Positions 1 to 22,126 of a stretch of DNA of 64,000 nt are shown here, in pieces (position 1 is the stretch's first letter; every line of letters starts with the position of its first letter). The stretch comes from Flectonema sp. DT1601 (taxonomy: Eukaryota). The notes below the pieces were generated by a model. It saw only the letters and a list, made by a program, of their open reading frames with translations. It searched no databases and was not told the DNA's origin. Location: contig OZ025800.1 of the NCBI GenBank assembly GCA_964019425.1, forward strand, positions 1-64,000. The letters are read 5' to 3'. A program made the position numbers and the translations under genes.

Positions 1-3000
1 CGGGTTTGCGGTTTTGCGGGTTTGCGGTGTTTGCGGGTTTGCGGGTTTGCGGTCTTTCGGTTTGCGGGTTTGCGGGTTTGCGTTTGCGGGTTTGCGGGTT
101 TGCGGGTTTGCGGGTTTGCGGGTTTGCGGGTTTGCGGGTTTGCGGGTTTGCGGGTTTGGTTTGCGGGTTTGCGGGGTTTGGCGGGGTTTTGCGGGTTTGC
201 GGGTTTGCGGGTTTGCGGGTTTGCGGGTTTGCGGTTTGCGGTTGCGGTTTTGCGGGTTTGCGGGTTTGCGGGTTTGCGGGTTTGCGGGTTTGCGGGTTTG
301 CGGGTTTGCGGGTTTGCGGGTTTGCGGGTTTGCGGGTTTGCGGGTTTGCGGGTTTGCGGGTTTGCGGGTTTGCGGGTTTGCGGGTTTGCGGGTTTTGCGG
401 GTTTGCGGGTTTGCGGGTTTGCGGGTTTGCGGGTTTGCGGGTTGCGGTTTGCGGTTTGCGGGTTTGCGGGTTTGCGGGTTTTGCGGTTGCGGTTTGCGGG
501 TTTGCGGGTTTGCGGGTTGCGGTTTGCGGGTTTGCGGGTTTGCGGGTTGCGGGTTTGCGGGTTTGCGGTTTGCGGGTTTGCGGGTTTGCGGCGGTTTGCG
601 GGTTTGCGGGTTTGCGGGGTTTGCGGGTTTGCGGGTTTGCGGGTTTGCGGGTTTGCGGTTTGCGGGTTTGCGGTTTGCGGGTTTGCGGGTTTGCGGTTTG
701 CGGGTTTGCGGGTTTGCGGGTTTGCGGGTTTGCGGTTTGCGGTTTGCGGGTTTGCGGGTTTGCGGATTGCGGTTTGCGGGTTTGCGGGTTTGCGGGTTTG
801 CGGGTTTGCGGGTTTGCGGGTTTGCGGTTGCGGTTTGCGGTTTGCGGGTTTGCGGGTTTGCGGGTTTGCGGTTTGCGGTTTGCGGGTTTGCGGGTTTGCG
901 GGTTTGCGGGTTTGCGGGTTTGCGGGTTTGCGGGTTGCGGTTTGCGGGTTTGCGGTTCGGTTTGCGGTTTGCGGGTTTGCGGGTTTGCGGGTTTGCGGGT
1001 TTGCGGGTTTGCGGGTTTGCGGGTTTGCGTTTTGCGGGTTTGCGGGTTGCGGGTTTGCGGGTTTGCGGGTTTGCGGGTTTGCGGGTTTGCGGTTTGCGGT
1101 TGTTTGCGGGTTTGCGGGTTTGCGGTCGGTTTGCGGGTTTGCGGGTTTGCGGGTTTGCGGGTTTGCGGTTTGCGGGTTTGCGGGTTTGCGGGTTTGCGGG
1201 TTTGCGGGTTTGCGGGTTTGCGGGTTTGCGGGTTTGCGGTTTGCGGGTTTGCGGGTTTGCGGGTTTGCGGTTTGCGGGTTTGCGGGTTTGCGGGTTGCGG
1301 GTTTGCGGGTTTGCGGGTTTGCGGGTTTGCGGGTTTGCGGGTTTGCGGGCGGTTTGCGGGTGTTTGCGGGTTTGCGGGTTGCGGGTTTGCGGGTTTGCGG
1401 GTTTTGCGGGTTTGCGGGTTTGCGGGTTTGCGGGTTTTGCGGGTTTGCGGCGTTTGCGGGTTTGCGGGTTTGCGGTTTGCGGGTTTGCGGGTTTGCGGGT
1501 TTGCGGGTTTGCGGGTTTGCGGGTTTGCGGGTTTGCGGTTTGCGGGTTTGCGGGTTTGCGGGTTTGCGGTTTGCGGGTTTGCGGGTTTGCGGGTTTGCGG
1601 GTTTGCGGGTTTGCGGGTTTGCGGGTTTGCGGGTTTGCGGGTTTAGCGGGTTTGCGGGTTTGCGGGTTTGCGGGTTTGCGGGGTTGCGGGTTTGCGGGTT
1701 TGCGGGTTTGCGGGTTTGCGGGTTTGCGGGTTTGCGGGTTTGCGGGTTTGCGGGTTTGCGCGGGTTGCGGGTTTGCGGGTTTGCGGGTTTGCGGGTTTGC
1801 GGGTTTGCGGGTTGCGGTTTGCGGGTTTGCGGTTTGCGGGTTTGCGGGTTTGCGGTTTTGCGGGTTTGCGGGTTTGCGGGTTTGCGGGTTTGCGGGTTTG
1901 CGGGTTTGCGGGTTTGCGGGTTTGCGGGTTTGCGGGTTTGCGGGTTTGCGGGTTTGCGGGTTTGCGGGTTTGCGGGTTTGCGGGTTTGCGGGTTTGCGGG
2001 TTTGCGGGTTTGCGGGTTTGCGGGTTTGCGGGTTTGCGGGTTTGCGGTTGCGGTTTGCGGGTTTGCGGGTTTGCGGGTTTGCGGGTTTGCGGGTTTGCGG
2101 GTTTGCGGGTTTGCGGGTTGCGGGTTTGCGGGTTTGCGGGTTTGCGGGTTTGCGGGTTTGCGGGTTTGCGGTTTGCGGGTTTGCGGGTTTTGCGGGTTTG
2201 CGGGTTTGCGGGTTTGCGGGTTTGCGGGTTTGCGGGTTTGCGGGTTTGCGGGTTTGCGGGTTTGCGGGTTGCGGTTTGCGGTTTGCGGTTTGCGGGTTTG
2301 CGGGTTTGCGGTTCTTGCGGGTTTGCGGGTTGCGGGTTTGCGGGTTTGCGGGTTTGCGGGTTTGCGGGTTTGCGGTTTGCGGGTTTGCGGGTTTGCGGGT
2401 TTGCGGGTTTGCGGGTTTGCGGGTTTGCGGGTTTGCGGTTTCGGTTTGCGGGTTTGCGGGTTTGCGGTTTGCGGGTTTGCGGGTTTGCGGTTGCGGTTTG
2501 CGGGTTTGCGGGTTTGCGTTGCGGTTTGCGGGTTGCGGTTTGCGGGTTTGCGGGTTTGCGGGTTTGCGGTTTGCGGGTTTGCGGGTTTGCGGGTTTGCGG
2601 TTGCGGTTTGCGGGTTTGCGGGTTTGCGGGTTTGCGGGTTGCGGGTTTGCGGGTTTGCGGGTTTGCGGGTTTGCGGGTTTGCGGTTTGCGGTTTGCGGTC
2701 GTTTGCGGGTTGCGGTTTGCGGGTTTGCGGGTTTGCGGTTTGCGGTTTGCGGGTTTGCGGGTTTGCGGGTTTGCGGGTTTGCGTGCGTTTGCGGGTTTGC
2801 GGGTTGCGGGTTGCGGGTTTGCGGGTTTGCGGGTTTGCGGGTTTGCGGGTTTGCGGGTTGCGGGTTTGCGGGTTTGCGGTTTGCGGTTTGCGGGTTTGCG
2901 GGTTTGCGGGTTTGCGGGTTTGCGGTTTGCGGGTTGCGGGTTTGCGGTTTGCGGGTTTGCGGGTTTGCGGGTTTGCGGGTTTGCGGGTTTGCGGGTTTGC

Positions 3001-5390
3001 GGGTTTGCGGGTTTGCGGGTTTGCGGGTTGCGGGTTGCGGTTTGCGGTTTGCGGGTTTGCGGGTTTGCGGGTTTGCGGGTTTGCGGTTGCGGGTTTGCGG
3101 GTTTGCGGGTTTGCGGGTTTGCGGGTTTGCGGGTTGCGGGTTTGCGGGTTTGCGGGTTTGCGGTTTGCGGGTTGCGGGTTTGCGGGTTTGGCGGGTTTGC
3201 GGTTTGCGGGTTTGCGGTTTGCGGGTTTGCGGGTTTGCGGGTTTGCGGGTTTGCGGGTTTGCGGGTTTGCGGGTTTGCGGGTTTGCGGGTTTGCGGGTTT
3301 GCGGGTTTGCGGGTTTGCGGGTTTGCGGGTTTGCGGGTTTGCGGGTTTGCGGGTTTGCGGGTTTGCGGGTTTGCGGGTTTTGCGGGTTTGCGGGTTTGCG
3401 GGTTTGCGGGTTTGCGGGTTTGCGGGTTTGCGGGTTTGCGGGTTTGCGGGTTTGCGGGTTTGCGGGTTTGCGGGGTTTGCGGGTTTGCGGGTTTGCGGGT
3501 TGCGGGTTTGCGGGTTTGCGGGTTTGCGGGTTTGCGGGTTTGCGGGTTTGCGGGTTTGCGGGTTTGCGGGTTTGCGGGTTTGCGGGTTTGCGGGTTTGCG
3601 GGGTTTGCGGGTTTGCGGGTTTGCGGGTTTGCGGGTTTGCGGGTTTGCGGGTTTGCGGGTTTGCGGGTTGCGGGTTTGCGGGTTTGCGGGTTTGCGGGTT
3701 TGCGGGTTTGCGGGTTTGCGGGTTTGCGGGTTTGCGGGTTTGCGGGTTTGCGGGTTTGCGGGTTTGCGGGTTTGCGGGTTTGCGGGTTTGCGGGTTTGCG
3801 GGTTTGCGGGTTTGCGGGTTTGCGGGTTTGCGGGTTTGCGGGTTTGCGGGTTTGCGGGTTTGCGGGTTTGCGGGTTTGCGGGTTTGCGGGTTTGCGGGTT
3901 TGCGGGTTTGCGGGTTTGCGGGTTTGCGGGTTTGCGGGTTTGCGGGTTTGCGGGTTTGCGGGTTTGCGGGTTTGCGGGTTTGCGGGTTTGCGGGTTTGCG
4001 GGTTTGCGGGTTTGCGGGTTTGCGGGTTTGCGGGTTTGCGGGTTTGCGGGTTTGCGGGTTTGCGGGTTTGCGGGTTTGCGGGTTTGCGGGTTTGCGGGTT
4101 TGCGGGTTTGCGGGTTTGCGGGTTTGCGGGTTTGCGGGTTTGCGGGTTTGCGGGTTTGCGGGTTTGCGGGTTTGCGGGTTTGCGGGTTTGCGGGTTTGCG
4201 GGTTTGCGGGTTTGCGGGTTTGCGGGTTTGCGGGTTTGCGGGTTTGCGGGTTTGCGGGTTTGCGGGTTTGCGGGTTTGCGGGTTTGCGGGTTTGCGGGTT
4301 TGCGGGTTTGCGGGTTTGCGGGTTTGCGGGTTTGCGGGTTTGCGGGTTTGCGGGTTTGCGGGTTTGCGGGTTTGCGGGTTTGCGGGTTTGCGGGTTTGCG
4401 GGTTTGCGGGTTTGCGGGTTTGCGGGTTTGCGGGTTTGCGGGTTTGCGGGTTTGCGGGTTTGCGGGTTTGCGGGTTTGCGGGTTTGCGGGTTTGCGGGTT
4501 TGCGGGTTTGCGGGTTTGCGGGTTTGCGGGTTTGCGGGTTTGCGGGTTTGCGGGTTTGCGGGTTTGCGGGTTTGCGGGTTTGCGGGTTTGCGGGTTTGCG
4601 GGTTTGCGGGTTTGCGGGTTTGCGGGTTTGCGGGTTTGCGGGTTTGCGGGTTTGCGGGTTTGCGGGTTTGCGGGTTTGCGGGTTTGCGGGTTTGCGGGTT
4701 TGCGGGTTTGCGGGTTTGCGGGTTTGCGGGTTTGCGGGTTTGCGGGTTTGCGGGTTTGCGGGTTTGCGGGTTTGCGGGTTTGCGGGTTTGCGGGTTTGCG
4801 GGTTTGCGGGTTTGCGGGTTTGCGGGTTTGCGGGTTTGCGGGTTTGCGGGTTTGCGGGTTTGCGGGTTTGCGGGTTTGCGGGTTTGCGGGTTTGCGGGTT
4901 TGCGGGTTTGCGGGTTTGCGGGTTTGCGGGTTTGCGGGTTTGCGGGTTTGCGGGTTTGCGGGTTTGCGGGTTTGCGGGTTTGCGGGTTTGCGGGTTTGCG
5001 GGTTTGCGGGTTTGCGGGTTTGCGGGTTTGCGGGTTTGCGGGTTTGCGGGTTTGCGGGTTTGCGGGTTTGCGGGTTTGCGGGTTTGCGGGTTTGCGGGTT
5101 TGCGGGTTTGCGGGTTTGCGGGTTTGCGGGTTTGCGGGTTTGCGGGTTTGCGGGTTTGCGGGTTTGCGGGTTTGCGGGTTTGCGGGTTTGCGGGTTTGCG
5201 GGTTTGCGGGTTTGCGGGTTTGCGGGTTTGCGGGTTTGCGGGTTTGCGGGTTTGCGGGTTTGCGGGTTTGCGGGTTTGCGGGTTTGCGGGTTTGCGGGTT
5301 TGCGGGTTTGCGGGTTTGCGGGTTTGCGGGTTTGCGGGTTTGCGGGTTTGCGGGTTTGCGGGTTTGCGGGTTTGCGGGTTTGCGGGTTTG
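1..5390 (+). repeat. (TTTGCGGG)n octamer tandem array, telomere-like
   Basis: Direct reading. Frequent 1-nt indel variants up to ~3670, essentially perfect from ~3670 to 5390. Confidence 0.98.
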
Positions 5391-7734
5391 AGAAAGACAA
5401 AGGAGAACCAAGTTAACACGAAGCAACTCATTCACGAAGGGGTAATGGGAAAACGGCACCGCATGCTTGTACAATTGCATGTTCGACCACGGCCTAAAAT
5501 CGGCCGGGGGAAAGGTTGGCACCGTCACAGGGGTAGGGCGGGTGGGAAAACGCTTTGCGTTAAGACCCTTCCTAGCCTGAATAAATGAGTACAATGAAAT
5601 AATGATAAGAGAACAGTAAAATGATAAATCTGAAATAATAACAAGAGAACAAAAATGATACTTAAACAACATTTAATGTTGATCAATGAAAAGGAAAATA
5701 TTATAAGAGTATATCGTACTTCACTTGCCTTTTGTGCAGTTCCCAGTCTGAGTGTTGGGAACCGCTCGGCATTCTCAGTGAAGTACTGTTGAAAAGGAAA
5801 AGTCATAAAGGAGAGTCTGATAAAAACAATCACACGAATTAACCACATAACAAGATACTAGCATCATAAGCCTCATGTCGTCTTAGCTTTCCCATTTTCT
5901 CAGCTGAATAAAATGATGATGAGAAAGACAAAGGAGAACCAAGTTAACACGAAGCAACTCATTCACGAAGGGGTAATGGGAAAACGGCACCGCATGCTTG
6001 TACAATTGCATGTTCGACCACGGCCTAAAATCGGCCGGGGGAAAGGTTGGCACCGTAACACCACCACCACATCGCGAGTCAGAAAGGCCCTCACCGCAAG
6101 TTCAACTTCCCGCTGATGCTCCGATGAGCCTATAACTCCTGGATCCACCCTCGATGGCAAGTCTGCTGGGTTCAGCGCTGACTTCACATAAGCAATACAG
6201 AAACTAACCTTTCTGTCTGCCAGCACATCGATGGCCTGCACGACCGCATCGTTCAGCCGTTGCGATCGGACTGACATCTTCTTCCGTGCTACGCCAATGA
6301 CTGACGTGTTGTCGATCCAGATGGACATTCGTTTGCCATCACAGCAAACCGGCATCCCCGAGACCGTGTTCCTGAACGCCATCCCCTCGAGAACATTGAT
6401 GTGGAGCGACTGTTCCGAAGGACCCCACGCATCCCCCAAGACAGTAACCTCGGCCGTCCTGTCGTTCACAACCACTCCACCCCAACCTCTCAACGACGCA
6501 TCCACGAACGTCGTGAACTCATCCTGATCTGGCTCCCGCGCAACCACCCTCCTCGTCACAGCGGCAGCCGACCAACTGCGCAACTCCATCGCGACCGAAA
6601 CAGGGACCGACACTACATCATGCACCTGCCTCACCCCGCGGTTCAAACCGTTCGACAACCTCCGCAAGAACTTCAAGGCATACCAGTATTTCCCCGGAGA
6701 CGCCGCAGCGATCGCCGACGCATGCATCAGCCTCCCAGCCATCGACTCCAACTGACTCGCCGTCACAGACGACAAGTCCACCGCCGCCAACTTCCGCCGG
6801 ATCTTCGCTGACGGCATGACCGACGACGCCTCGTGGTCAAAGTCCACACCCAAAAATGTGTACTTGCTCACCGCCGTATTCGAGTCAGACGGCTTCCATG
6901 TAAGACGGAAGTCCGCCGCCGCAGCATCGAGATTCACCGTCGCCGCCAACACCGCGCCTTCCGTCCCCGTGTACCGAATGTTGTCGATGAACACGTCAAC
7001 GCCAACATCCCTGGCAGCCCACTGACGTCGCACGTAAGCTGGATCCCCCGCAGCCGCCGCTGCCAAAGAGTGCATCAGCTCCGGCGCGCAGACATGCCCC
7101 ATCGGCAAACGGCACAGCTCGAACCATTCACCCTCCGTCGTCTTGAATCGGAAGAGATCTCTCGCTTCCTCCGGGATTTCAATAGCATAAAAACCTGTCT
7201 TGAAATCCCGTGTCGAGCCAACCTCGGTCAGAACCCGATCCAAATATTTTGAGATGTGGAACAGCGGGACGTGAGCTTCGTAAGCTTCTTCGGCCCAACC
7301 ATTCGCATCCCTCGTCCAAAGGATGAACCGCTGCCGCAGTCCCTCCGGCTTCTCCTCCACCACGGTGAATGGAACGTTCACCGCTCTCCCCGGTCCACTC
7401 GCAGCTCGCGCGATCCCGTTCCTCAGCAACTCCGCAGCGTGCCTCCCAGCGAAAGATGAAGTAGACGACGAGCGACTCAACTTCCCCACCTCCGGGTAAA
7501 AGGTCAAGTTCCACACCTGATCGAACCTATCCCTCGCAACATCAGTCATCCTACTTCTGAGTCCGTCAACATCCATCGTCTCAACGCCACTCACATGCAA
7601 AGGCGACGAACGTTCCTCCGCCGTCGACGGCAGTCTTGTCCGCTTGCCCCTCCTGATGATGCTGTGCGTCGTGCACGGAGACAGCCGCGCCACCGCTTCC
7701 ATCGCCTCACCTTCGTCGTCAACGTCCTCCGCAA

Positions 7735-8871
7735 CTACAGCAGGATGGTGACCTTCCACGTTTGCAGCGCTCGGGCGGTGTCCACGAAATCCGACGAATA
7801 CCTGATCGTTGTTGCAGAGATGTTGGTTCCGTCTTCGGCGTGCTTCAACAGTCGTGATACCAGGTACCCTTCTGTGAGCCTTCCCTCGGCCATCGCTCGC
7901 ATCAAAGCCGCGGCGGCGCCTCGTTTTATCGAGTGGCCCGTAAAACCCCGCATTCCCGGAGTCCCCCGCCACAACTCTGCCAACCGCTCGGTGGTGACAT
8001 CCGTCAGCCGATCGAAAGGAGCCAGCTCCCGAAACAAGCTTGCGATCTCCCCGACCAGATCCCCCCGCAAGACCGCCCAACGGGACGGCACGAACGGGTT
8101 TGCTCTCCGGTGTTTTGGCGACGTCCCCCAGTCCACGATCACTTCCGCGTCCTCCACCAGAACGAAATGCGCCGACGTCAGCACGTGCACTTCTCCCCAC
8201 CGGGAAGCCGACTTCCAACACACCAGCGCCGCGAGCCTCAAACGTCCCGTTAGACTTCTCGCCCAACCCAACAGCTGCTCCTTTGACATGGGAACTGCTT
8301 GCGAACGCGGAACGGCCGCCCCTTTTGCCCTCAGCGCGCTTGCCAGGCTGAGGAGCGGTTGGTTTTCCAGACCAAGGTGTCGGTAGATCCCGGACAGCGC
8401 CTTTGCGTATTGCAGCTGTCCCTGCGGTCTCACGTCTGTGGCCAGCACGAACAACGCAGCTGTTTCGGCAGACATTGGCAGACGCTGAGCCAACGCCCAT
8501 TGTTCCAACCGACCCCAGAGGTTTCTGCGTTTCGACGAGGTTTCGTCCGCCCACATCGACGCGACGACCACCCCCAGGCGCTCCAACGCTGTGTCGTGGT
8601 CCACCCTTACTTCCATCGTGTCTCCACGGTGTCGATCGTCCCTCCGGATGTGTTCGAGGACCACCTTCCCGAAAACCGACGGAACTTCCACCTGCGCAGC
8701 GCATCTTCGTTTTCGGAATCCCTCTCGCGTACTCGCGCAAGGTCCCGGTGCGGCGACACTCGTTGACCCACGCTGCACTCCAGCTGGCACCGCGCCGACC
8801 AGGAGAGGCCGCGGTCCACTTGCCGCCCCTCCTCCCGCGACGCCCTCTACGGGTTCGTTTACGGCCAGGAT
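7735..8871 (-). CDS. Tyrosine recombinase of family 1 (same frame as gag, after one TGA)
   Basis: Catalytic residues R (SASRWGEV), K (SPKH), HxxR (GHSIKRG), H (LKH), Y (TIRY). The frame is open from the gag stop onward; true start unknown. Confidence 0.9.
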   Translation of the reverse strand: MLAVNEPVEGVAGGGAASGPRPLLVGAVPAGVQRGSTSVAAPGPCASTREGFRKRRCAAQVEVPSVFGKVVLEHIRRDDRHRGDTMEVRVDHDTALERLGVVVASMWADETSSKRRNLWGRLEQWALAQRLPMSAETAALFVLATDVRPQGQLQYAKALSGIYRHLGLENQPLLSLASALRAKGAAVPRSQAVPMSKEQLLGWARSLTGRLRLAALVCWKSASRWGEVHVLTSAHFVLVEDAEVIVDWGTSPKHRRANPFVPSRWAVLRGDLVGEIASLFRELAPFDRLTDVTTERLAELWRGTPGMRGFTGHSIKRGAAAALMRAMAEGRLTEGYLVSRLLKHAEDGTNISATTIRYSSDFVDTARALQTWKVTILL

Positions 8872-11058
<2,187 letters not shown>

Positions 11059-11279
11059 ATTAATTCTTAAAAACGCTTTGCGTTAAGACCCTTCCTAGCC
11101 TGAATAAATGAGTACAATGAAATAATGATAAGAGAACAGTAAAATGATAAATCTGAAATAATAACAAGAGAACAAAAATGATACTTAAACAACATTTAAT
11201 GTTGATCAATGAAAAGGAAAATATTATAAGAGTATATCGTACTTCACTTGCCTTTTGTGCAGTTCCCAGTCTGAGTGTT

Positions 11280-11815
11280 GGTTTGCGGGTTTGCGGGTTT
11301 GCGGGTTTGCGGGTTTGCGGGTTTGCGGGTTTGCGGGTTTGCGGGTTTGCGGGTTTGCGGGTTTGCGGGTTTGCGGGTTTGCGGGTTTGCGGGTTTGCGG
11401 GTTTGCGGGTTTGCGGGTTTGCGGGTTTGCGGGTTTGCGGGTTTGCGGGTTTTGCGGGTTTGCGGGTTTTGCGGGTTTGCGGGTTTTGCGGGTTTGCGGG
11501 TTTGCGGGTTTGCGGGTTTGCGGGTTTGCGGGTTTGCGGGTTTGCGGGTTTGCGGGTTTGCGGGTTTGCGGGTTTGCGGGTTTGCGGGTTTGCGGGTTTG
11601 CGGGTTTGCGGGTTTGCGGGTTTGCGGGTTTGCGGGTTTGCGGGTTTGCGGGTTTGCGGGTTTGCGGGTTTTGCGGGTTTGCGGGTTTTGCGGGTTTGCG
11701 GGTTTTGCGGGTTTGCGGGTTTGCGGGTTTGCGGGTTTGCGGGTTTGCGGGTTTGCGGGTTTGCGGGTTTGCGGGTTTGCGGGTTTGCGGGTTTGCGGGT
11801 TTGCGGGTTTGCGGG
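11280..11815 (+). repeat. (TTTGCGGG)n array between elements
   Basis: Direct reading; contains TTTT variants. Confidence 0.97.
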
Positions 11816-12639
11816 GAATCACTTTTTTAGGATCAGCCATAGTTCTGGTATGGAACTTTTGGGAGTAGAAAGTAAGATGAAGCAAGTTATAAAGATATAA
11901 CCTTGCAAAACTGGAATGTATACATGTACTAAAAGGAAAAGACTTGATAACTCATTCTTTCAATTTTATCTGCAGATGCTTTCTTTATTCTTACCCATTA
12001 AGACAAAGAATAAATAACTAAGAATGGAATATTGATGAGATACTACTACTTACGAAGGGGTGAAGGTGTGACCAAGTAATGGCGGTCGGCCATGGCCCGG
12101 CCGGGGGTTTAGGGAGGGTGGGAATTTTAAATTATTAAATTAATTTAAAGATGCAAGAATGCCTGGAAAGGCAGATAGGCATAAACGAATCAATCGTAAT
12201 GCACTATAAAAAAGATGGAAGAAACAAGTGGTCGTATTATACTATAGGCTCGACGAATCAATCATGTTGCACTATAATAAAATAAATGGTAAGACTGCTC
12301 ACATTAAGAACTGATAAGACAATGGATTGCTACATAGAAATTTGTATCATAAGAATAAAGTGGTGAACTACAGCGCTGATCCTGAGAGATTCCCATATTG
12401 GTGTTAGGGGAATCACTTTTTTAGGATCAGCCATAGTTCTGGTATGGAACTTTTGGGAGTAGAAAGTAAGATGAAGCAAGTTATAAAGATATAACCTTGC
12501 AAAACTGGAATGTATACATGTACTAAAAGGAAAAGACTTGATAACTCATTCTTTCAATTTTATCTGCAGATGCTTTCTTTATTCTTACCCATTAAGACAA
12601 AGAATAAATAACTAAGAATGGAATATTGATGAGATACTA

Positions 12640-15441
12640 CTACTTACGAAGGGGTGAAGGTGTGACCAAGTAATGGCGGTCGGCCATGGCCCGGCTACCA
12701 CCACCCCCACGCAAGTCAAAGAAACGCCCCAACGCAAGTGCTGCCTCGGAACGTTGTTGTTTGATATTAGCGCCGTCAGGACAAATGCGAGACGGAAAAT
12801 CTGCTGGATTGCATTTTGTAGAAACCCAGTTGAGCCTATAAGTGCATTGTAGTCTATTAAGATGATTCATAATGTAATTTACTTGTCTGTTGAGTGCCAT
12901 GGAACGGACTGACATGCCCTTCTTTGTTGAGTATAAGACGGTTGTATTATCCACGTAAATATCCAAATGTGATGCTTTCGAGATCGATCGAAGCGTAGAA
13001 GTAAGAGCAGTGGCCTCAAGGACGTTGATATGCTCACTACTTTCCTTCTCAGTCCATCGTGCCCCCAGGATGTCCATCTCATAATTATGATCAAAGATCA
13101 CAGCTCCCCAGCCCTTCATGGAAGCGTCGACGAAGATCATCCTAGAATCATCATCATCATCATCTCTCTTCGTTTCCCCTACATGTACGTTCCGTGTTGT
13201 TAGTACCTCCTTAGACCAGTTTGAAATTTCCTTCCTAACTGAGCTGGGGATGGGCACCACGTGTTCAGTCTGAACGACCCCACGGTTTAATGAATTCGTG
13301 ACCCTGCGAAAAAACTTTAGCGCAAACCAGTATTTACCAGGATGTATGTGAGTAATTGCCGAAGCATGTAGGAGGCGACCAGCTAAGCTTTCGATCTTCT
13401 CCGCGGTGATGTTATCGAGGCAAGTATTAAGTATCCTCCTGCGTAGCTTTTCGGCGACGGCAACAGTACACCTAGTATGGTCAAACCTTACACCAAGAAA
13501 GTCGTATTCTTTAGCGAGTTCCTGAGTTTCTTCTTGCTTCCAAGTCACGTTACAACGTCTCGCCACCTCATTTATTCTTGCTGTTGCCTCATTTACACAC
13601 CCGAATGAGCCAGTTATCCTGATATTGTCAATCCAAATATCGGTAACTACCCCCCGATATGTGAAAGCAGGCTTGGCAAATGTAGGATCGCCTGCAACAG
13701 TTGCTGTTAGAGAATGCATAATCTCAGGTGCCGCCATATGTCCCATCGGCAACCTGGTTAGCTCAAACCACTCCCCTCGCTCATCCTGGAATCTGAAATA
13801 TTTCCTAGAGCGCTCAGGTATGGAAACCTGGTAAAACCCCGTCTTCAAGTCCCATTGGGATGATGTCTCCCTCGTCACTTGAGAGAGGTACTGAGCAATG
13901 TGCTCCAAGGGAACCTTCGGCTTGTACCCGAGTTCGTGCATCATCAAGTTGGCCTCCTTCGTCCACAAGATGAATCGCTGCCGAGTTCCAGTTATCCGTT
14001 CTTCAAGTATTGTAAAGGGTATTGATTCCAATATCCCGGGGCTGCTTGTTTGGGTTGCAACCCCTGCCTCTACTAGCCGGCGTGCATGCTGAGACTGCAG
14101 ACAAGACTCCCTATGACTCTTTTTATACTGATGGCTTTGGTGAGTACCTTGCCGACACGGGTTGAACGTAAGGTCCCATACCTCTTCAAACCTCCTGCGT
14201 GTCCCATCAGTCATCATCCGTTTTACCTCTTGAACGTCAATGGTCCCCACTTCCTTTACGTGTAGAGGCGTCGCCCTCTCTTCCTCGGTTGAAGGGAGGC
14301 GAGTGGTCTTCGACTTCCGAGTGAAGTTCTGCATAAGTCTCCGCGCAGTTCTTGGAATTACAAATGTTGGGTTATGCGGCTTGTGTTCAGGGAGAGAGCC
14401 AGCGACCTGTCCGACCCTGCATATCTTAACGTCGTTTCTGATATCTGCTGGTTTGCCGTTTCGTGTTTGGCTAGTCGACTTATGAGCATCAGCGGAATAA
14501 CTAATCCTGTCTGTTTCTTCTCGAAAATGAACTTTATTGCACCGCGTTTTATGCTGTGAGCACTGTAATTTTCCATGCGAGAATCCTTCTTCCAAAGTCC
14601 TGTGAGCTTTGCAGTGTCGACTTTTGTTAAACGATCGAAGAATCCCAACCTCATGATGGCTCTGTATATCTCCTCCGTCCATCTTCCGGTGATTACCGCG
14701 AACCTTGAAGCCGTGTACGGATTCTCCCTCTTTCCCTTCGGAATCTGGTTCCAGTCCACAATTACTGTTAAAGGGTCGCATTGAATGAAGCTGCCCGAGG
14801 ACAGCGCCGCGACCTCCCCCCAGCGAGACATTGTTTTCCAGGCAATCATTGCGGCGGTTGAAACCCCTAGCTCCTGTGTTTGACACCATTCTTCCAGGAT
14901 TCCCCTTGGGATCGGAGTTGCTTGTGACTCGGGCACCGTAGCACCGTCTGCCCTTAGGGCCACCTGAAGGCTCCTGAGGGGTTGGTTTTCCATCCCGAGG
15001 TGTTTCATAATACCCGACAATGCCTTTGCGTAGTTTAGTAAACTTTGTGACTTCGCCCCTGTAGCGGTTACGAATAAGACCGCAGAATTTGCATCCATGG
15101 GTAGGCTCCTGTCGGTGACCCACTTCACATACCTCGACCATAATCGTTTTCTCTGGTCGATGGTAGACACCGCCCACATCTTTCTTACGATGGCGCGTAC
15201 CCGCTTCTCTGCTGCCTTTATGGTGACTTCGTCTTCTGATTGAGTCCTTCTTGTTGGTCTGCGTTGCAAGATCTGTAAAGTTGCTTGCTCCATTATTCCT
15301 TTTCCTTTGACCAACTCGTCTTGCCGCATTTTGGCGATCATGCTCCCGGTTTTTTTGCTTAATAAAGTTATACTTGGCCGGGTCCAAGTAAACTTCCTTT
15401 CCCGTACTGCGATTCAATTTTTCCGCACCTGCTGGGGCCAA
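12640..15441 (-). CDS. Reverse transcriptase + RNase H of family 2
   Basis: DLKTGFYQV, LPMG, IWIDNI, FLGV, FVDAS, HINVLE, VDNT, NPADFPSR. Confidence 0.92.
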   Translation of the reverse strand: MAPAGAEKLNRSTGKEVYLDPAKYNFIKQKNREHDRQNAARRVGQRKRNNGASNFTDLATQTNKKDSIRRRSHHKGSREAGTRHRKKDVGGVYHRPEKTIMVEVCEVGHRQEPTHGCKFCGLIRNRYRGEVTKFTKLRKGIVGYYETPRDGKPTPQEPSGGPKGRRCYGARVTSNSDPKGNPGRMVSNTGARGFNRRNDCLENNVSLGGGRGAVLGQLHSMRPFNSNCGLEPDSEGKEGESVHGFKVRGNHRKMDGGDIQSHHEVGILRSFNKSRHCKAHRTLEEGFSHGKLQCSQHKTRCNKVHFREETDRISYSADAHKSTSQTRNGKPADIRNDVKICRVGQVAGSLPEHKPHNPTFVIPRTARRLMQNFTRKSKTTRLPSTEEERATPLHVKEVGTIDVQEVKRMMTDGTRRRFEEVWDLTFNPCRQGTHQSHQYKKSHRESCLQSQHARRLVEAGVATQTSSPGILESIPFTILEERITGTRQRFILWTKEANLMMHELGYKPKVPLEHIAQYLSQVTRETSSQWDLKTGFYQVSIPERSRKYFRFQDERGEWFELTRLPMGHMAAPEIMHSLTATVAGDPTFAKPAFTYRGVVTDIWIDNIRITGSFGCVNEATARINEVARRCNVTWKQEETQELAKEYDFLGVRFDHTRCTVAVAEKLRRRILNTCLDNITAEKIESLAGRLLHASAITHIHPGKYWFALKFFRRVTNSLNRGVVQTEHVVPIPSSVRKEISNWSKEVLTTRNVHVGETKRDDDDDDSRMIFVDASMKGWGAVIFDHNYEMDILGARWTEKESSEHINVLEATALTSTLRSISKASHLDIYVDNTTVLYSTKKGMSVRSMALNRQVNYIMNHLNRLQCTYRLNWVSTKCNPADFPSRICPDGANIKQQRSEAALALGRFFDLRGGGGSRAMADRHYLVTPSPLRK
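14358..15341 (-). CDS. Tyrosine recombinase of family 2
   Basis: TMSRWGEV, IPKG, AHSIKRG, LAKH, TLRY; in frame with gag. Confidence 0.9.
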   Translation of the reverse strand: MIAKMRQDELVKGKGIMEQATLQILQRRPTRRTQSEDEVTIKAAEKRVRAIVRKMWAVSTIDQRKRLWSRYVKWVTDRSLPMDANSAVLFVTATGAKSQSLLNYAKALSGIMKHLGMENQPLRSLQVALRADGATVPESQATPIPRGILEEWCQTQELGVSTAAMIAWKTMSRWGEVAALSSGSFIQCDPLTVIVDWNQIPKGKRENPYTASRFAVITGRWTEEIYRAIMRLGFFDRLTKVDTAKLTGLWKKDSRMENYSAHSIKRGAIKFIFEKKQTGLVIPLMLISRLAKHETANQQISETTLRYAGSDRSLALSLNTSRITQHL

Positions 15442-16760
15442 CGGCCTGGACCTAAAAAAGCCTTCGTTGGCTTTGGTTTCGGGGTCCAGGTGTTCTTATT
15501 TTTCTTCGAAGCTTTTTGAATTGACCTGTCGATGTAGTCGTGTTGATTGGCTTCCATTTCCGTCAATACATCGCTGAGCCTGGCCCCCCGTACAACATAT
15601 CCTTGTTGTACACGAAGCAGCGATAGACTCCTATTTCCCAAGCTAACCATTTCAGGCATCCCCTCCCAGGAGTTTACCTGTTCTGCCACCCTAATCCAGT
15701 CTACAAGCATTTCGAAATATGCGAGTAGTACTCGGTCACCTGGTTTGACGGTGGTACAACCGTTGGTGTATTTAAAACGCAAGTCTCTAATGAGACCGGT
15801 CGCGTCCTCCTCAATGGCATCTTTCCATTGTAAGACATCCTTCGAGTCCTCGATTCTCTTAGTTGTAAAGAAAACCTTCGTTTGTGTTGGGGACGTCTGT
15901 AATGTGGGAGCATCCTCCGGAACATTTCTGTTTGCAATTGCCGTCAGCCTGTCCACTCGTTCGTCCGAAGCGGCAGATTGTTCGAGCCCCGTCACCGATT
16001 GAGAGGTAGACCTCTTCGCGGCATTCTCCAAACTCTTCAAGATCCTGTCGATCTTTTTATCCTGGGCTACAGCCATTTCACGATTTTCGGTAATGGCCCC
16101 CCGCATCTTCGCCATCTCCGAATGTTGATCCCTGATCGCTGAATCAGTCATCCCAGCCAAATTGCTTGTATTCTGGCCTTGGCGAGATAATTCGTCGGCA
16201 ATAATGGCGTGTCCCTGCTCCAATGCCTGTTGACGGTTTCTCACGTTAACAGTTTCATGCTCCAATACAGTCTGTCTCTGCCCCGCTGAATTCAAAGCTT
16301 GCGAGGTAACTTGTTCAAGAACCGCTTGCCTCTGCACGGTGTTTGATACCACTTGGCTCGCACCCTCCATAACATGGTGAAACTCCGTACGGGAGACGGG
16401 TAAACCCTCCGTCACCCCACATGCTCGTAGCATTTCATCGAATCTCTGCACATTCCTGTTTCGCAGATGTGAGAGCATAACTTCCTTTGGCCTCATCGCT
16501 ATTCCTTGCAACGAGTCTCTCGAAACACCCAGGAAGGCCATCAACATATCATTAATGATGCTCTCAGCTTGATGCTGTACACACCATCCCCCTAAGTTCA
16601 TTCTTACGTCATCCATTTTGTATGTACCTCGTTTTAACTCCTCTTCGCCGAAAGTGCTTTTCCAAGCATCTTCCAAACTTGAAGGAAATCTAAAATCGTA
16701 CGTACTTATTACAGTCGAGGGGGATGGTTGGTCGATTATCATAGGCGTTTGTTGATCCAT
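15414..16760 (-). CDS. Gag-like ORF1 of family 2
   Basis: 448-aa ORF whose ATG abuts the end of A1. Coiled-coil-like middle. Assignment is positional. Confidence 0.75.
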   Translation of the reverse strand: MDQQTPMIIDQPSPSTVISTYDFRFPSSLEDAWKSTFGEEELKRGTYKMDDVRMNLGGWCVQHQAESIINDMLMAFLGVSRDSLQGIAMRPKEVMLSHLRNRNVQRFDEMLRACGVTEGLPVSRTEFHHVMEGASQVVSNTVQRQAVLEQVTSQALNSAGQRQTVLEHETVNVRNRQQALEQGHAIIADELSRQGQNTSNLAGMTDSAIRDQHSEMAKMRGAITENREMAVAQDKKIDRILKSLENAAKRSTSQSVTGLEQSAASDERVDRLTAIANRNVPEDAPTLQTSPTQTKVFFTTKRIEDSKDVLQWKDAIEEDATGLIRDLRFKYTNGCTTVKPGDRVLLAYFEMLVDWIRVAEQVNSWEGMPEMVSLGNRSLSLLRVQQGYVVRGARLSDVLTEMEANQHDYIDRSIQKASKKNKNTWTPKPKPTKAFLGPGRWPQQVRKN

Positions 16761-17041
16761 TTTAAATTATTAAATTAATTTAAAGATGCAAGAATGCCTG
16801 GAAAGGCAGATAGGCATAAACGAATCAATCGTAATGCACTATAAAAAAGATGGAAGAAACAAGTGGTCGTATTATACTATAGGCTCGACGAATCAATCAT
16901 GTTGCACTATAATAAAATAAATGGTAAGACTGCTCACATTAAGAACTGATAAGACAATGGATTGCTACATAGAAATTTGTATCATAAGAATAAAGTGGTG
17001 AACTACAGCGCTGATCCTGAGAGATTCCCATATTGGTGTTA

Positions 17042-17164
17042 GGGTTTGCGGGTTTGCGGGTTTGCGGGTTTGCGGGTTTGCGGGTTTGCGGGTTTGCGGG
17101 TTTGCGGGTTTGCGGGTTTGCGGGTTTGCGGGTTTGCGGGTTTGCGGGTTTGCGGGTTTGCGGG
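17042..17164 (+). repeat. (TTTGCGGG)n short array
   Basis: Direct reading. Confidence 0.97.
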
Positions 17165-17695
17165 GAACCGCTCGGCATTCTCAGTGAAGTACTGTTGAAA
17201 AGGAAAAGTCATAAAGGAGAGTCTGATAAAAACAATCACACGAATTAACCACATAACAAGATACTAGCATCATAAGCCTCATGTCGTCTTAGCTTTCCCA
17301 TTTTCTCAGCTGAATAAAATGATGATGAGAAAGACAAAGGAGAACCAAGTTAACACGAAGCAACTCATTCACGAAGGGGTAATGGGAAAACGGCACCGCA
17401 TGCTTGTACAATTGCATGTTCGACCACGGCCTAAAATCGGCCGGGGGAAAGGTTGGCACCGTCACAGGGGTAGGGCGGGTGGGAAAACGCTTTGCGTTAA
17501 GACCCTTCCTAGCCTGAATAAATGAGTACAATGAAATATTGATAAGAGAACAGTAAAATGATAAATCTGAAATAATAACAAGAGAACAAAAATGATACTT
17601 AAACAACATTTAATGTTGATTAATGAAAAGGAAAATATTATAAGAGTATATCGTACTTCACTTGCCTTTTGTGCAGTTCCCAGTCTGAGTGTTGG
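17163..17695 (-). mobile_element. Solo A-spacer-B remnant of family 1 (solo-LTR analogue)
   Basis: Full B (17163-17462) + G-rich spacer + A (17484-17695). Near-identical to the family-1 repeats, no ORFs, both ends at the octamer GGG. Confidence 0.9.
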
Positions 17696-17943
17696 TTTGC
17701 GGGTTTGCGGGTTTGCGGGTTTGCGGGTTTGCGGGTTTGCGGGTTTGCGGGTTTGCGGGTTTGCGGGTTTGCGGGTTTGCGGGTTTGCGGGTTTGCGGGT
17801 TTGCGGGTTTGCGGGTTTGCGGGTTTGCGGGTTTGCGGGTTTGCGGGTTTGCGGGTTTGCGGGTTTGCGGGTTTGCGGGTTTGCGGGTTTGCGGGTTTGC
17901 GGGTTTGCGGGTTTGCGGGTTTGCGGGTTTGCGGGTTTGCGGG
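17694..17943 (+). repeat. (TTTGCGGG)n short array
   Basis: Direct reading. Confidence 0.97.
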
Positions 17944-20574
17944 GAATCACCTTTTAGGATCTGCCATAGTTCTTTTGATGGAAATTAAGGGAGTAGAAAA
18001 TAAGATAAAGCAAGTTATAAAAACCATAACCTTGCAATGGAGACGTTGACACGTACTAAGTTTACTTGATTGACAATTCTTTCACAATCTGCAGATGCTT
18101 TCTTTATTAAGACAAAGAAATAACAACTAAGAAAGGAATAATAATACTTACGAAGGGGTGAGGGTGACCAAGTAATGGCGGTCGGCGACGGCCCGGCCGG
18201 GGGTTAAGGGAGGGCGGGAATTTAAAAGAAATTTAATTTATTTAAAGGATGCAAAATTGCCTGGATAAAGGCAGATAGGCATAACGAATCAATCGCATAG
18301 CACTATATAAAATGATAAGACGGTAAAACATGATAAGATAGTAAACTACGGCCGATCCCGGGAGATTCCCATATTGGTGTTAGGGGAATCACCTTTTAGG
18401 ATCTGCCATAGTTCTTTTGATGGAACTTAAGGGAGTAGAAAATAAGATAAAGCAAGTTATAAAAACCATAACCTTGCAATGGAGACGTTGACACGTACTA
18501 AGTTTACTTGATTGACAATTCTTTCACAATCTGCAGATGCTTTCTTTATTAAGACAAAGAAATAACAACTAAGAAAGGAATAATAATACTTACGAAGGGG
18601 TGAGGGTGACCAAGTAATGGCGGTCGGCGACGGCCCGGCTACCACCACCCCCACGCAAGTCGAAGAAACGCCCCAGCGCAAGTACTGCTTCGGAGCGTTG
18701 TTGTTTAATGTTGTTGCTGTTAGGGCAAATACGAGACGGAAAATCTGCTGGGTTGCATTTTGTAGATACCCAGTTTAGTTTATAAGTGCATTGCAGTCTA
18801 TTAAGATGATTAATAATGTAATTAACTTGTCTGTTGAGAGCCATTGAACGAACAGACATACCCTTCTTTGTTGAGTATAGAACAGTCGTGTTATCTACGT
18901 AGATATCTAAGTGTGATATCTTCGAAATCGTTCGGAGTGTAGATGAAAGGGCAGTAGCCTCCAGCACGTTGATATGTTCACTACTTTCCTTTTTAGTCCA
19001 CTGTTCTCCCAGTATAGTCATCTCATAATTTTGATCAAAGATTACGGCTCCCCAGCCCTTCATAGATGCATCGACAAAGATCATCTTAGAATCATCTCGC
19101 CGGCTGTCCCCGGCGCGTATGCTCCGTGTCGTCAGCACCTCCTTCGACCAGTTGGATATGTCGCTCCTTACTGATCTGGGAATGGGCACTTCTTGTTCTG
19201 TCTGAACGACACCACGATTCAACGAGTTAGTGACCCTTCGGAAGAATTTTAGTGCAAACCAGTACTTACCTGGATGTACGCGAGTAATCGCCGAAGCGTG
19301 TAAAAGGCGACCTGCTAAGCTTTCGATTTTCTCGGATGTAATGTTATCAAGGCAAGTATTCAGTATCCTCTTGCGAAGCTTCTCAGCAACAGCAACAGTA
19401 CACTCATTATGATTAAACCTTACACCGAGAAAATCATACTCCTTAGCAAGCTCCTGAGTTTCTTCCTGCTTCCATGTCACGTTGCAGCGTTTTGCCACTT
19501 CGTTAATTCTAGTTGTTGCATCGGATACATGCCTGCATGAACCAGTAACCCTAATGTTGTCGATCCACACGTCAGTAACGATCCCTCGGTGCGTGAAACA
19601 GGGCTTGGTAAAAGTAGGTTCGCCTGCGACAGTTGCTGTCAGCGAGTGCATAATCTCAGGTGCTGCCATATGTCCCATCGGCAACCTGGTAAGCTCAAAC
19701 CACTCCCCTCGCTCATCTTGAAATCTAAAATATTTCCTCGAGCGCTCAGGTATTGATACCTGGTAAAACCCAGTCTTCAAGTCCCATTGAGACGATGTCT
19801 CCCTTGTAACTTGAGAAAGGTATTGGGATACATGCCCCAAAGGAACCCGCGGCTTGTACCCAAGATCGTGCATCATCCTGTTGGCCTCTTTCGTCCACAA
19901 GATGAACCGTTGTCGAATCCCAGCCTGCCGTTCTTCGAGGATAGTGAAGGGTATCGACTCGAGTATCCCGGGGCCGTCGGCTAGGGTTGCAACCCCTGCC
20001 TCCACCAGTCGTCGCGCATGTTCCGACTGCAGACTAGACTCCTTATGGCTCTTCTTGTACCCAATGGTCCCTTGTCCCTTCGGATTAAAGGTTTGGTCCC
20101 AGACCTCTTCGAACCTCCTGCGGGTACCTTCAGTCATCATCTTCTTCACTTCTTCAACATCGATGGTCCCCACTTCCTTGACATGAAGAGGTGCCGCCTT
20201 CTCCTCGTCAGTTGTAGGGAGTCGTGTGGTCTTCGACTTCCGAGTGAAATTCTGCATAAGTCTCCGGGCAGTCCTTGGAGCTACAGATGTTGTGTTACTC
20301 GGGCTGTACGTAGTGAAAGAGCCAGCCCCCTGGTCGATCCTGCGTATCTTAGCGTTGTCTCTGATATCTGTTGGTTTGCCGTCTCGTGTTTCGCTAATCG
20401 ACTTATCAATTTAAAAGAAATTTAATTTATTTAAAGGATGCAAAATTGCCTGGATAAAGGCAGATAGGCATAACGAATCAATCGCATAGCACTATATAAA
20501 ATGATAAGACGGTAAAACATGATAAGATAGTAAACTACGGCCGATCCCGGGAGATTCCCATATTGGTGTTAGGG
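17941..20574 (-). mobile_element. Internally deleted family-2 variant (2b) YR retrotransposon
   Basis: B2 17941-18197, spacer, A2 18219-18386, B1 18383-18639, RT/RH, then the 3' end of YR to ~20407 joined directly to A1 20408-20574. gag and most of YR are missing. Confidence 0.9.
18590..20257 (-). CDS. RT/RNase H core ORF of the deleted family-2b copy
   Basis: 555 aa, highly similar to the C-terminal part of 12640-15441; VWIDNI, FVDAS, NPADFPSR. Confidence 0.85.
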   Translation of the reverse strand: MQNFTRKSKTTRLPTTDEEKAAPLHVKEVGTIDVEEVKKMMTEGTRRRFEEVWDQTFNPKGQGTIGYKKSHKESSLQSEHARRLVEAGVATLADGPGILESIPFTILEERQAGIRQRFILWTKEANRMMHDLGYKPRVPLGHVSQYLSQVTRETSSQWDLKTGFYQVSIPERSRKYFRFQDERGEWFELTRLPMGHMAAPEIMHSLTATVAGEPTFTKPCFTHRGIVTDVWIDNIRVTGSCRHVSDATTRINEVAKRCNVTWKQEETQELAKEYDFLGVRFNHNECTVAVAEKLRKRILNTCLDNITSEKIESLAGRLLHASAITRVHPGKYWFALKFFRRVTNSLNRGVVQTEQEVPIPRSVRSDISNWSKEVLTTRSIRAGDSRRDDSKMIFVDASMKGWGAVIFDQNYEMTILGEQWTKKESSEHINVLEATALSSTLRTISKISHLDIYVDNTTVLYSTKKGMSVRSMALNRQVNYIINHLNRLQCTYKLNWVSTKCNPADFPSRICPNSNNIKQQRSEAVLALGRFFDLRGGGGSRAVADRHYLVTLTPS

Positions 20575-20739
20575 TTTGCGGGTTTGCGGGTTTGCGGGTT
20601 TGCGGGTTTGCGGGTTTGCGGGTTTGCGGGTTTGCGGGTTTGCGGGTTTGCGGGTTTGCGGGTTTGCGGGTTTGCGGGTTTGCGGGTTTGCGGGTTTGCG
20701 GGTTTGCGGGTTTGCGGGTTTGCGGGTTTGCGGGTTTGC
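20572..20739 (+). repeat. (TTTGCGGG)n innermost array
   Basis: Direct reading. Confidence 0.97.
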
Positions 20740-20895
20740 AGGTCGGCATCCAGACTGTCTACACCGGACAGCCCCATCGCTTCCTGGAACCTTCTGTTCC
20801 TTGCCTCCAGGGACACCTTCATCCGTCCCACTTCACCAAGTATCGCCTTGGCTTTTCCGGCGATACTTGCTGGTACCGAAAAATCATAATAAGAA
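20738..20895 (-). pseudogene. Relic of a family-1-related gag 5' region
   Basis: Translates YYDFSVPASIAGKAKAILGEVGRMKVSLEARNRRFQEAMGLSGVDS, versus family-1 YFYFSVPSSVMEKVRPLLGDVSRMKVSLTARNRRFQAAMGLSGSDS. Frameshift before WMPTC, in-frame stop upstream, cut off by the array. Confidence 0.85.
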
Positions 20896-22126
20896 CTTCA
20901 GTTTCTTCATGTCCGCATATTGATATTCCAGTTTCTACCAGTGTCACCAGATGCGAGCAGACCGTGCACCTCTCTATTCAGATCCTCTAACGTAAGATCA
21001 ACTATTGGTTTGGTTTTCTGTGTTGGTGATTCATGTAGAAGGTTGGGAAATGTATGTCAAAACGTTCGATTCTCACCTGTGAGGTGTTTGGCCTCATTTC
21101 GAATCGACCAGATTTTTATAAAACTTATGAGTACCTAATATTGTCTCGAAAATTAACCATAGAAAAAGACGAACACCAGGAAGGGTGTCTTTTTGATTTA
21201 CTTCTAGTGGTGTCGTGGGGTATTTGATTGGAATTTTCCTTTGACTTTTTATGTTGTGGTGATGCGGGGTCAGCCGCTGTAATTTCAACAGTATCCTCTG
21301 TATCATCGGTAGTGGTATTTTCCTCCGACACTTGGCTTTTACCTCTCTTAGTAACTCTACCAGTTGGTTTAGACCTTAGATTTGGTATTACCATCATCAA
21401 TGTGAGAGCTAATGAAGCGGAGGCATGCTGCTCTGATATTGTCAGATTTATAGCCCCGGTTGAGTAATCTATATGTTAGTTCTTGTAAAAAATCTGCTTA
21501 AACGAATCCATCGTTTATTTGTGTTAGTGATCTCTATTCGGATACGAATTCCTATATAAGAGACATTATTTGAAGTATCAGTGTGATCCATTGAGTACAG
21601 GCTTGCTAGTGGAGGGTCGCAACTCCAGGTGAGGAAGTCGTTGATGTATCTACACGAGTGGTCATGTTGCCGAGCTAAGTCTAAATTTTTTGCAATCGAT
21701 AAATGCGGATTCAACCCTGTAGCAGTAGAGATTTGCTATATCGCTACTGGCGTTGCCACCCATTGGAATGCCTATTGTTTGACTCCAAATATAACCCCTT
21801 AATGCAATAAAGCGAATGCAAACAACTCTTAGTTAGAGAGTCCGACATACAATTGAGTACCGGTTAGAAAGACACGACAGGGTGGAACGGTTAACCACTT
21901 GTATGTCCCCAATACTACAACATTATGTCAAACCTAATGAGAGGATCACTTTTTTAGCTCTAGCGAGGAATTCTAATGTTCGAGAGACCCGAATACCTCA
22001 ATGTTTCGGCCTTAACCGGTTATAATCAATTTATAAACGTCCCATAGGTGCACGCAAAGAGCTGTGAATGAATGATAGTTAATTCCATTTCTCTATCGCC
22101 GTAAAAAGAGCAGAACATTTCGAAGC

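Follow-up and report, generated by a model that had tools for sequence, protein, structure and literature searches.

A candidate three-way recoding junction at the gag end of VIPER-type tyrosine-recombinase retrotransposons

Introduction

The −1 frameshift signals between gag and pol of retroviruses and long terminal repeat (LTR) retrotransposons include the U_UUU_UUA heptamer of HIV-1 and heptamers of the A_AAA_AAC and G_GGA_AAC types. How the overlapping open reading frames (ORFs) of tyrosine-recombinase retrotransposons are expressed is unexplained in the literature searched. Among these retrotransposons, VIPER elements carry gag-like, tyrosine recombinase (YR) and reverse transcriptase/RNase H (RT/RH) genes in this order, repeats arranged as A1..B1-A2-B2, SIRE-like solo A-B units, and a YR of ~340-380 amino acids (aa) that is overlapped along its entire length by an RT ORF of ~950 aa (PMC6681497, sections available). 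These traits recur in the elements analyzed here, which lie in a 64,000-nucleotide (nt) window, the whole stretch of DNA under analysis, comprising positions 1 to 64,000 of contig OZ025800.1 from Flectonema sp. DT1601 (assembly GCA_964019425.1). The window harbors two element families, family 1 and family 2, both read on the minus strand, and the gag end of family 2 is the main subject of this work; all coordinates are window positions.

Recoding signals in VIPER elements are not described in the literature searched, with earlier VIPER and YR-element papers and Repbase lying outside that search. The available sections of the PMC6681497 main text contain no mention of readthrough, slippery or stop codon and use frameshift only for mutations, those of PMC6681497, PMC12278014, PMC12440569, PMC5814959, PMC10161547 and PMC5009743 report ORF overlap at most and no VIPER recoding, and those of Hackl 2021 (PMC8547959) hold nothing relevant on this point. 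Here, we propose that one mRNA may well give rise to three proteins at the VIPER-type gag end, through termination, a −1 slip and possible readthrough of the gag stop, a reading to which we assign a probability of about 0.5.

The gag junction of family 2 and its relatives

The features at the junctions of the two window families are as follows.

15414..16760, minus strand: family 2 gag-like ORF, 448 aa, stop codon TGA
15453..15459, minus strand: family 2 slippery heptamer U_UUU_UUA, in gag phase, 36 nt 5' of the TGA (15416-15414)
15411..15419, minus strand: family 2 stop context AAT-TGA-ATC, of which relatives share UGA-A only
12640..15495, minus strand: family 2 −1 frame, 951 codons, with an extension of ~370 codons overprinted on YR followed by RT/RNase H
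14358..15413, minus strand: family 2 YR frame, 351 codons, in the gag frame, first AUGs at 15341 and 15329
8896..8902, minus strand: family 1 heptamer A_AAA_AAC, 21 nt 5' of its TGA, with the same frame logic as family 2

The gag frame at the family 2 junction reads AAG GCT TTT TTA GGT, which places the heptamer in the phase given in the original prediction, and the −1 frame spells EGFFRSRPLAPAGAEKLNR. The latter opens 82 nt 5' of the gag stop and continues for 925 codons beyond it, through all of YR into RT/RH, while the 0 frame 3' of the TGA stays open for 351 codons (YR), and both continuations had been correctly foreseen. The window contains two copies of AATTGAATC with both strands counted, one at each gag stop of families 1 and 2, in agreement with the 9-nt context previously reported as shared; as a conserved cue, however, this context did not hold, because AAT precedes the stop in only 2/11 elements and UGA-A alone is kept. 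The two Gags, described earlier as looking unalignable, reached a best E of 13 against each other, and family 2 Gag is similar to the Gag region of a gene model from Diplonema papillatum (E 7e-16).

The 11 elements compared comprise the two window families, four metagenome loci (L002-L005) and five published kinetoplastid VIPERs, the last read by eye with the frame set by the CCHC knuckle or the ORF table and the other six analyzed by script. Relatives were drawn from 12 loci of a metagenome scan and one of a genome scan, 4/13 of which include the junction; L001 and L006-L013 lack a gag/YR junction and were left out, L013 beginning inside YR. The junctions of the relatives, with heptamer, distance to the gag stop, and stop with following codon, are listed below.

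L005: G_GGA_AAC at 21 nt, UGA AUG
L003: A_AAA_AAC at 39 nt, UAG GGA
L004: no canonical heptamer, UGA AUG
L002: no heptamer in the 99 nt covered, UGA ACG
B. saltans (by eye): G_GGA_AAC at 24 nt, UGA AGU
C. fasciculata (by eye): A_AAA_AAA at 21 nt, UGA AUC, in a copy with a frameshift farther 5' in gag; A_AAA_AAC at 33 nt, UGA ACC; G_GGA_AAC at 42 nt, UGA AGC
T. cruzi (by eye, two like copies): A_AAA_AAC at 27 nt, UGA AUG

A canonical in-phase heptamer lies 21-42 nt before the gag stop in 9/11 elements (4/6 by script and 5/5 published VIPERs by eye) and belongs to four types (A_AAA_AAC in four, G_GGA_AAC in three, A_AAA_AAA and U_UUU_UUA in one each). The gag stop is UGA in 10 of the 11, followed by A each time, and the 0 frame from the stop to the YR core is open in all 11. 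L004 and L005 (RT identity 28-29%) each have a single TGA closing gag, with YR behind it in the same frame and a −1 frame that begins just before this stop and continues without interruption; the 5' side of L002 and L003 is truncated. The candidate recoding junction of heptamer and UGA-A is family-wide, that of the Chagas parasite T. cruzi included. L004 (L004:2113-3030) and L005 (L005:2473-3400) also carry ~300 low-complexity codons that separate the gag stop from the YR core, with two frames open. L013 (JAURVW010000340.1), a contig with VIPER-like YR/RT, is catalogued under a bacterial metagenome-assembled genome, probably as eukaryotic contamination.

Evidence for a −1 frameshift to Gag-RT

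In-phase XXX-WWW-H heptamers are rare in the background (5/2570 gag-body codons and 16/6926 host codons), corresponding to a chance of ~4% per 20-codon gene end, and one was found in 1/15 host gene ends. Their presence in at least 4 of 6 elements has a probability of 3-6e-5, although the 20-codon window was picked after the data were seen and the elements share descent, so that binomial P values overstate their independence. For the two window families alone, the corresponding value (2 of 2) is ~0.002, consistent with the earlier argument for selection over chance, and selection is likewise indicated by the occurrence of four types of heptamer in gag ends that otherwise diverge.

The overprinted frame provides a second line of evidence. 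Over YR, the −1 frame of family 2 contains no stops, compared with a mean of 10.9 under synonymous shuffling (0/2000 shuffles open), and it is stop-free in 5/5 tested elements (shuffle means 8-28, 0/2000 open in each). Many database RT proteins bear an equally long extension. Two further observations weigh against the frameshift, namely the lack of a canonical heptamer in L002 and L004 and one internal stop, at 1287, in the RT frame of L003.

If no frameshift took place, RT would start on its own, at the internal MQNF methionine or, in the −1 frame, at an xUG sharing bases with the UGA; the heptamers would then be incidental. An RT-frame AUG in L002 and a CUG in L004, the two elements without a canonical heptamer, do overlap the UGA in this manner, and the protein encoded by the −1 extension is weakly conserved (33% over 64 aa when the two families are compared). 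However, the base 5' of the UGA displays no preference for A (3/10), an internal start leaves 350-600 overprinted stop-free codons without explanation, and a start at the stop does the same for the phased heptamers of 9/11 elements and their hairpins, making an independent RT start very improbable. A −1 frameshift to Gag-RT, as read from these sequence patterns, is very likely.

RNA structure around the junction

Folds were compared with those of shuffled sequences, pseudoknots lying outside these folds, and concern the following features.

15364..15396, minus strand: family 2 stem-loop 3' of the stop, minimum free energy (MFE) fold of −13.6 kcal/mol, 13 base pairs (bp), one bulge
15436..15446, minus strand: family 2 GGCC/GGCC hairpin of 4 bp, 6 nt past the heptamer, a weak candidate stimulator, region z ~0
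8863..8889, minus strand: family 1 hairpin starting 6 nt past the heptamer; its loop contains the UGA (8874-8872)

The stem placed ~16 nt past the family 2 stop in the original prediction does form as the MFE fold, starting at 17-18 nt, but it is neither significant nor shared: 47/500 and 20/200 shuffles fold equally well, which is within chance, and no counterpart 3' of the stop was found in the five other elements folded (z −1.25 to +1.2). A pseudoknot using its loop was considered by eye and dropped, as it has only 4 bp and is not kept in P0002.

A predicted hairpin ~6 nt past the heptamer instead recurs in several elements. It is significant in family 1 (z −2.4 to −2.5, 3/200 shuffles as good) and in L005 (5-6 nt past the heptamer, z −3.9), and was recognized by eye in two Crithidia copies and, with a 10-bp stem, in T. 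cruzi, with the UGA in or at the hairpin loop in several elements. It is weak in family 2 itself, where no significant structure follows the heptamer (z −0.04 to +1.6), a point against a stimulated frameshift at this locus, and structure after the heptamer of L003 is likewise not significant. The U6A heptamer is slippery even with weak stimulators.

Synthesis of the recombinase

Readthrough of the UGA into YR has, in our assessment, an even chance of being the route to the recombinase. The stop bias of the elements (UGA-A in 10/11) contrasts with that of host genes (UGA in 5/15, UGA-A in 3/15), and Trp-tRNA is favored at UGA-A in yeast (PMC4748822, available part). In addition, two B. saltans TATE copies hold gag, YR and RT within a single ORF (PMC6681497, sections available), suggesting that a Gag-YR fusion may be tolerated. 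The location of YR in the gag frame is not independent evidence, because the −1 shift and the fixed YR/RT overlap together dictate the YR phase.

Several observations weigh against readthrough. The leakiest context in yeast is UGA-C, not UGA-A (same part of PMC4748822), no 3' readthrough stimulator common to the elements was found, and to find the 0 frame open as far as the YR core would not be unusual by chance in families 1 and 2 and L002 (P 0.11-0.20). In S. cerevisiae, readthrough at Tca2 was not brought about by the local context of the stop (PMC2194720, available part), so a mechanism is not safely read from stop context. Moreover, the family 2 AUG codons 25 and 29 lie upstream of all detectable YR-family similarity, and an AUG-started family 2 YR would therefore be complete. 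Similarity upstream of the first YR AUG of family 1 was suggestive by BLASTP and not significant by a profile test (90/959 shuffles as good), and was set aside; a search for longer YR proteins (792-2260 aa) gave no match, which is weak evidence.

In a second route, Gag-RT would arise by −1 frameshift and YR would be released free by termination-reinitiation at the codon after the UGA (AUG, AUC or ACG) or at a nearby AUG. The codon after the stop is AUG in 3/11 elements (T. cruzi, L004 and L005) and AUC (families 1 and 2 and one Crithidia copy) or ACG (L002) in four more, giving 7/11, but it is ACC, AGU, AGC or GGA in the other 4/11. A UGA-AYG is also implied for P0002 by the N-termini of related RT-frame proteins, a protein-only inference, and the first AUGs past the family 2 stop are all in the YR frame. 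In other elements a nearby AUG is missing, which counts in favor of readthrough: the first in-frame AUG of L002 is codon 203, ~150 codons within the YR core and hence unusable, and that of the B. saltans copy lies ~120 codons on, by eye. In a published coordinate table, as far as available, ORF2 starts inside ORF1 in 6/17 copies (offsets unreliable), among them both L. pyrrhocoris copies, in which it starts 4 nt before the gag end and fits an AUGA overlap. The SART1 retrotransposon, together with near-cognate restarts, offers a precedent (PMC10275272, available part), whereas restarting after a long ORF generally depends on dedicated RNA elements, none of which was identified here, and a restart leaves the bias for UGA over UAA and UAG unexplained. 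We regard this route as somewhat unlikely.

A third route, with Gag-RT again made by frameshift, would supply YR from a separate trans- or cis-spliced mRNA beginning at the internal AUG 15341 or 15329. The host seems to be euglenozoan (Diplonema papillatum matches and co-oriented long ORFs), and a pyrimidine tract with AG lies 40-80 nt past the stop in L004 and L002 (18/20 and 17/20), with pyrimidine-rich stretches there in T. cruzi and B. saltans by eye. However, L002 and L004 are pyrimidine-rich throughout, the first AUG past the AG of L002 is out of frame, and families 1 and 2 contain no pyrimidine tract between the stop and the YR core (12/20 and 13/20, whereas the values before gag are 18 and 16). 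In D. papillatum, three gene models (P0174, P0314 and P0315) join Gag, YR and RT at identical points, in favor of this route, but they omit the region of the YR catalytic Tyr and resemble a predicted-intron artefact. A spliced YR mRNA is quite unlikely. These fused models and P0162, in which Gag and RT form one entry, were excluded as probable products of annotation or of indels. The Gag of P0174, P0314 and P0315 closes with KN and then 7 residues, of which the last three are RGN, similar to the heptamer-to-stop spacing of family 1, as known from protein alone.

With regard to the recoding architecture originally predicted, the −1 frameshift to Gag-RT is strongly supported, and more widely than foreseen (9/11 elements), while readthrough is plausible and not singled out.

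Proposed operation of the junction

On the three-way reading, most ribosomes would stop at the UGA and release Gag (448 aa). Some would very likely slip −1 on U_UUU_UUA into the frame overprinted on YR, giving a Gag-RT of predicted ~1373 aa, and some would possibly read UGA-A through into the recombinase, decoding UGA perhaps as Trp and giving a Gag-YR of predicted 800 aa. The hairpin ~6 nt past the heptamer would act as stimulator in most members, and fusion to Gag would serve the packaging of both enzymes. The junction peptides predicted for family 2 are KAF(L/F)RSRPLAPAGAEK for the frameshift and VRKN-x-IAVR for readthrough. Extended to euglenozoan VIPERs including T. cruzi, the model states that heptamer and hairpin send ribosomes into −1, that the loop-held UGA-A is read as Trp, and that the Gag : Gag-RT : Gag-YR ratio is determined by both recoding events, spaced 21-42 nt from each other; to this full version we give slightly less than even odds.

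If true, nuclear −1 frameshifting, and perhaps readthrough, would join euglenozoan translation, and the predicted VIPER proteins would change from three separate ORFs to Gag fusions. The junction spans 100 nt and comes with natural variants in 11 elements.

The elements and their genomic setting

The remaining features of the two families are as follows.

16759..17044, minus strand: family 2 A1 repeat, 100% identical to 12124-12409
11806..12695, minus strand: family 2 3' repeats, B1 12400-12695, A2 12124-12409, B2 11806-12101
11285..11810, plus strand: (GGGTTTGC)n target array flanking family 2 at its 3' side; the 5' flank has another array (17042-17161)
5389..11281, minus strand: family 1 element with A1 11070-11281, gag 8872-11058, YR 7735-8871, RT frame 5963-8965, and B1-A2-truncated B2

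Both families contain three ORFs ordered gag-like, YR and RT/RH, with split direct repeats (A1 at the 5' side, B1-A2-B2 at the 3' side), and share 41% identity in YR and 42% in the RT domains. The A1 repeat of family 2 includes a pyrimidine tract (18/20) and AG 5' of the gag ATG, a possible trans-splice acceptor. R197, K226, H286, R290, H317 and Y331 of family 2 YR fall in conserved alignment columns, and we take these R, K, HxxR, H and Y residues to be the catalytic set; the Pfam scan gave no YR match. Judged by its sequence, family 2 is an intact VIPER-type tyrosine-recombinase retrotransposon, an element type already known, and VIPER is preferred over TATE because the ORF sizes (a short YR of ~340 aa overlapped by a ~950-aa RT ORF) fit VIPER. 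The long poly-Q tract in family 1 gag (9563-10255) consists of CAG/CAA repeats.

Named RT and YR matches are D. papillatum hypothetical proteins (92 RT matches and 28 YR matches), which makes a diplonemid-like euglenozoan host likely. A YR profile matched 1435 cluster representatives, and P0118, by eye near a Crithidia VIPER YR, matches family 2 YR at E 3e-19. Viral contigs searched with the RT and YR alignments gave no match.

Families 1 and 2 are inserted in (GGGTTTGC)n arrays and joined to them via a short CCC core that recurs at the internal B-A junction, and this recurrence would fit recombination of a circular intermediate. The arrays at 11285-11810, 17042-17161, 17699-17938 and 20572-20739 host all elements, in one orientation and with CCC-core joints, so that two divergent families occupy one common target site. 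A further (GGGTTTGC)n array fills window positions 1-5389; it is noisy close to position 1 and is connected to a truncated copy of B2. Should position 1 mark the end of a chromosome, the C/A-rich strand would read 5' to 3' toward that end, opposite to ordinary telomeres; alternatively, the array could be a satellite inside the chromosome where the contig happens to break. A family 1 solo A-B unit, similar to SIRE of T. cruzi, lies between two arrays (17163-17695), and a third subfamily copy (17941-20574, ~81% to family 2) has an internal deletion that fuses A directly to the end of YR and RT, followed by a full B-A-B. The piece at 20739-20900 resembles the 5' part of family 1 gag and is ended by a repeat array. 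Host genes, all on the minus strand and with long ORFs, occupy 22127-59163 (ankyrin/JmjC, kinase, proline racemase, ferric reductase, CSN5 and mitochondrial carrier), among them a 2015-codon ORF without Pfam match (49947-55994).

Comparison with known systems

Published VIPERs resemble the window elements in the junction as well, since Additional file 10 of PMC6681497, in our own reading of the available part, contains the heptamer and UGA-A. The window elements differ in their likely host, a diplonemid-like protist, and in the location of both families in an 8-nt repeat array. Both window Gags also lack a CCHC knuckle, a difference that holds in part, as several published VIPERs lack it too (same source). 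TATE elements share the gene order, split repeats and insertion in a short G-rich tandem repeat, but their YR ORFs comprise ~620-1090 codons and RT overlaps the YR end at most.

Retroviral and LTR gag-pol signals resemble the VIPER-type junction in having an in-phase X_XXY_YYZ heptamer near the gag end and a hairpin ~6 nt downstream. Unlike in those systems, the shifted frame is here overprinted for 350-600 codons on a second enzyme gene, which lies behind the gag stop, itself often in the hairpin loop. In Tca2 (gag-UGA-pol, PMC2194720) and SART1 (stop-restart, PMC10275272), the downstream enzyme ORF likewise abuts the ORF1 stop on one RNA; in the available parts of both sources, however, each relies on a single bypass event, whereas VIPER-type elements may combine two such events in a three-way junction.

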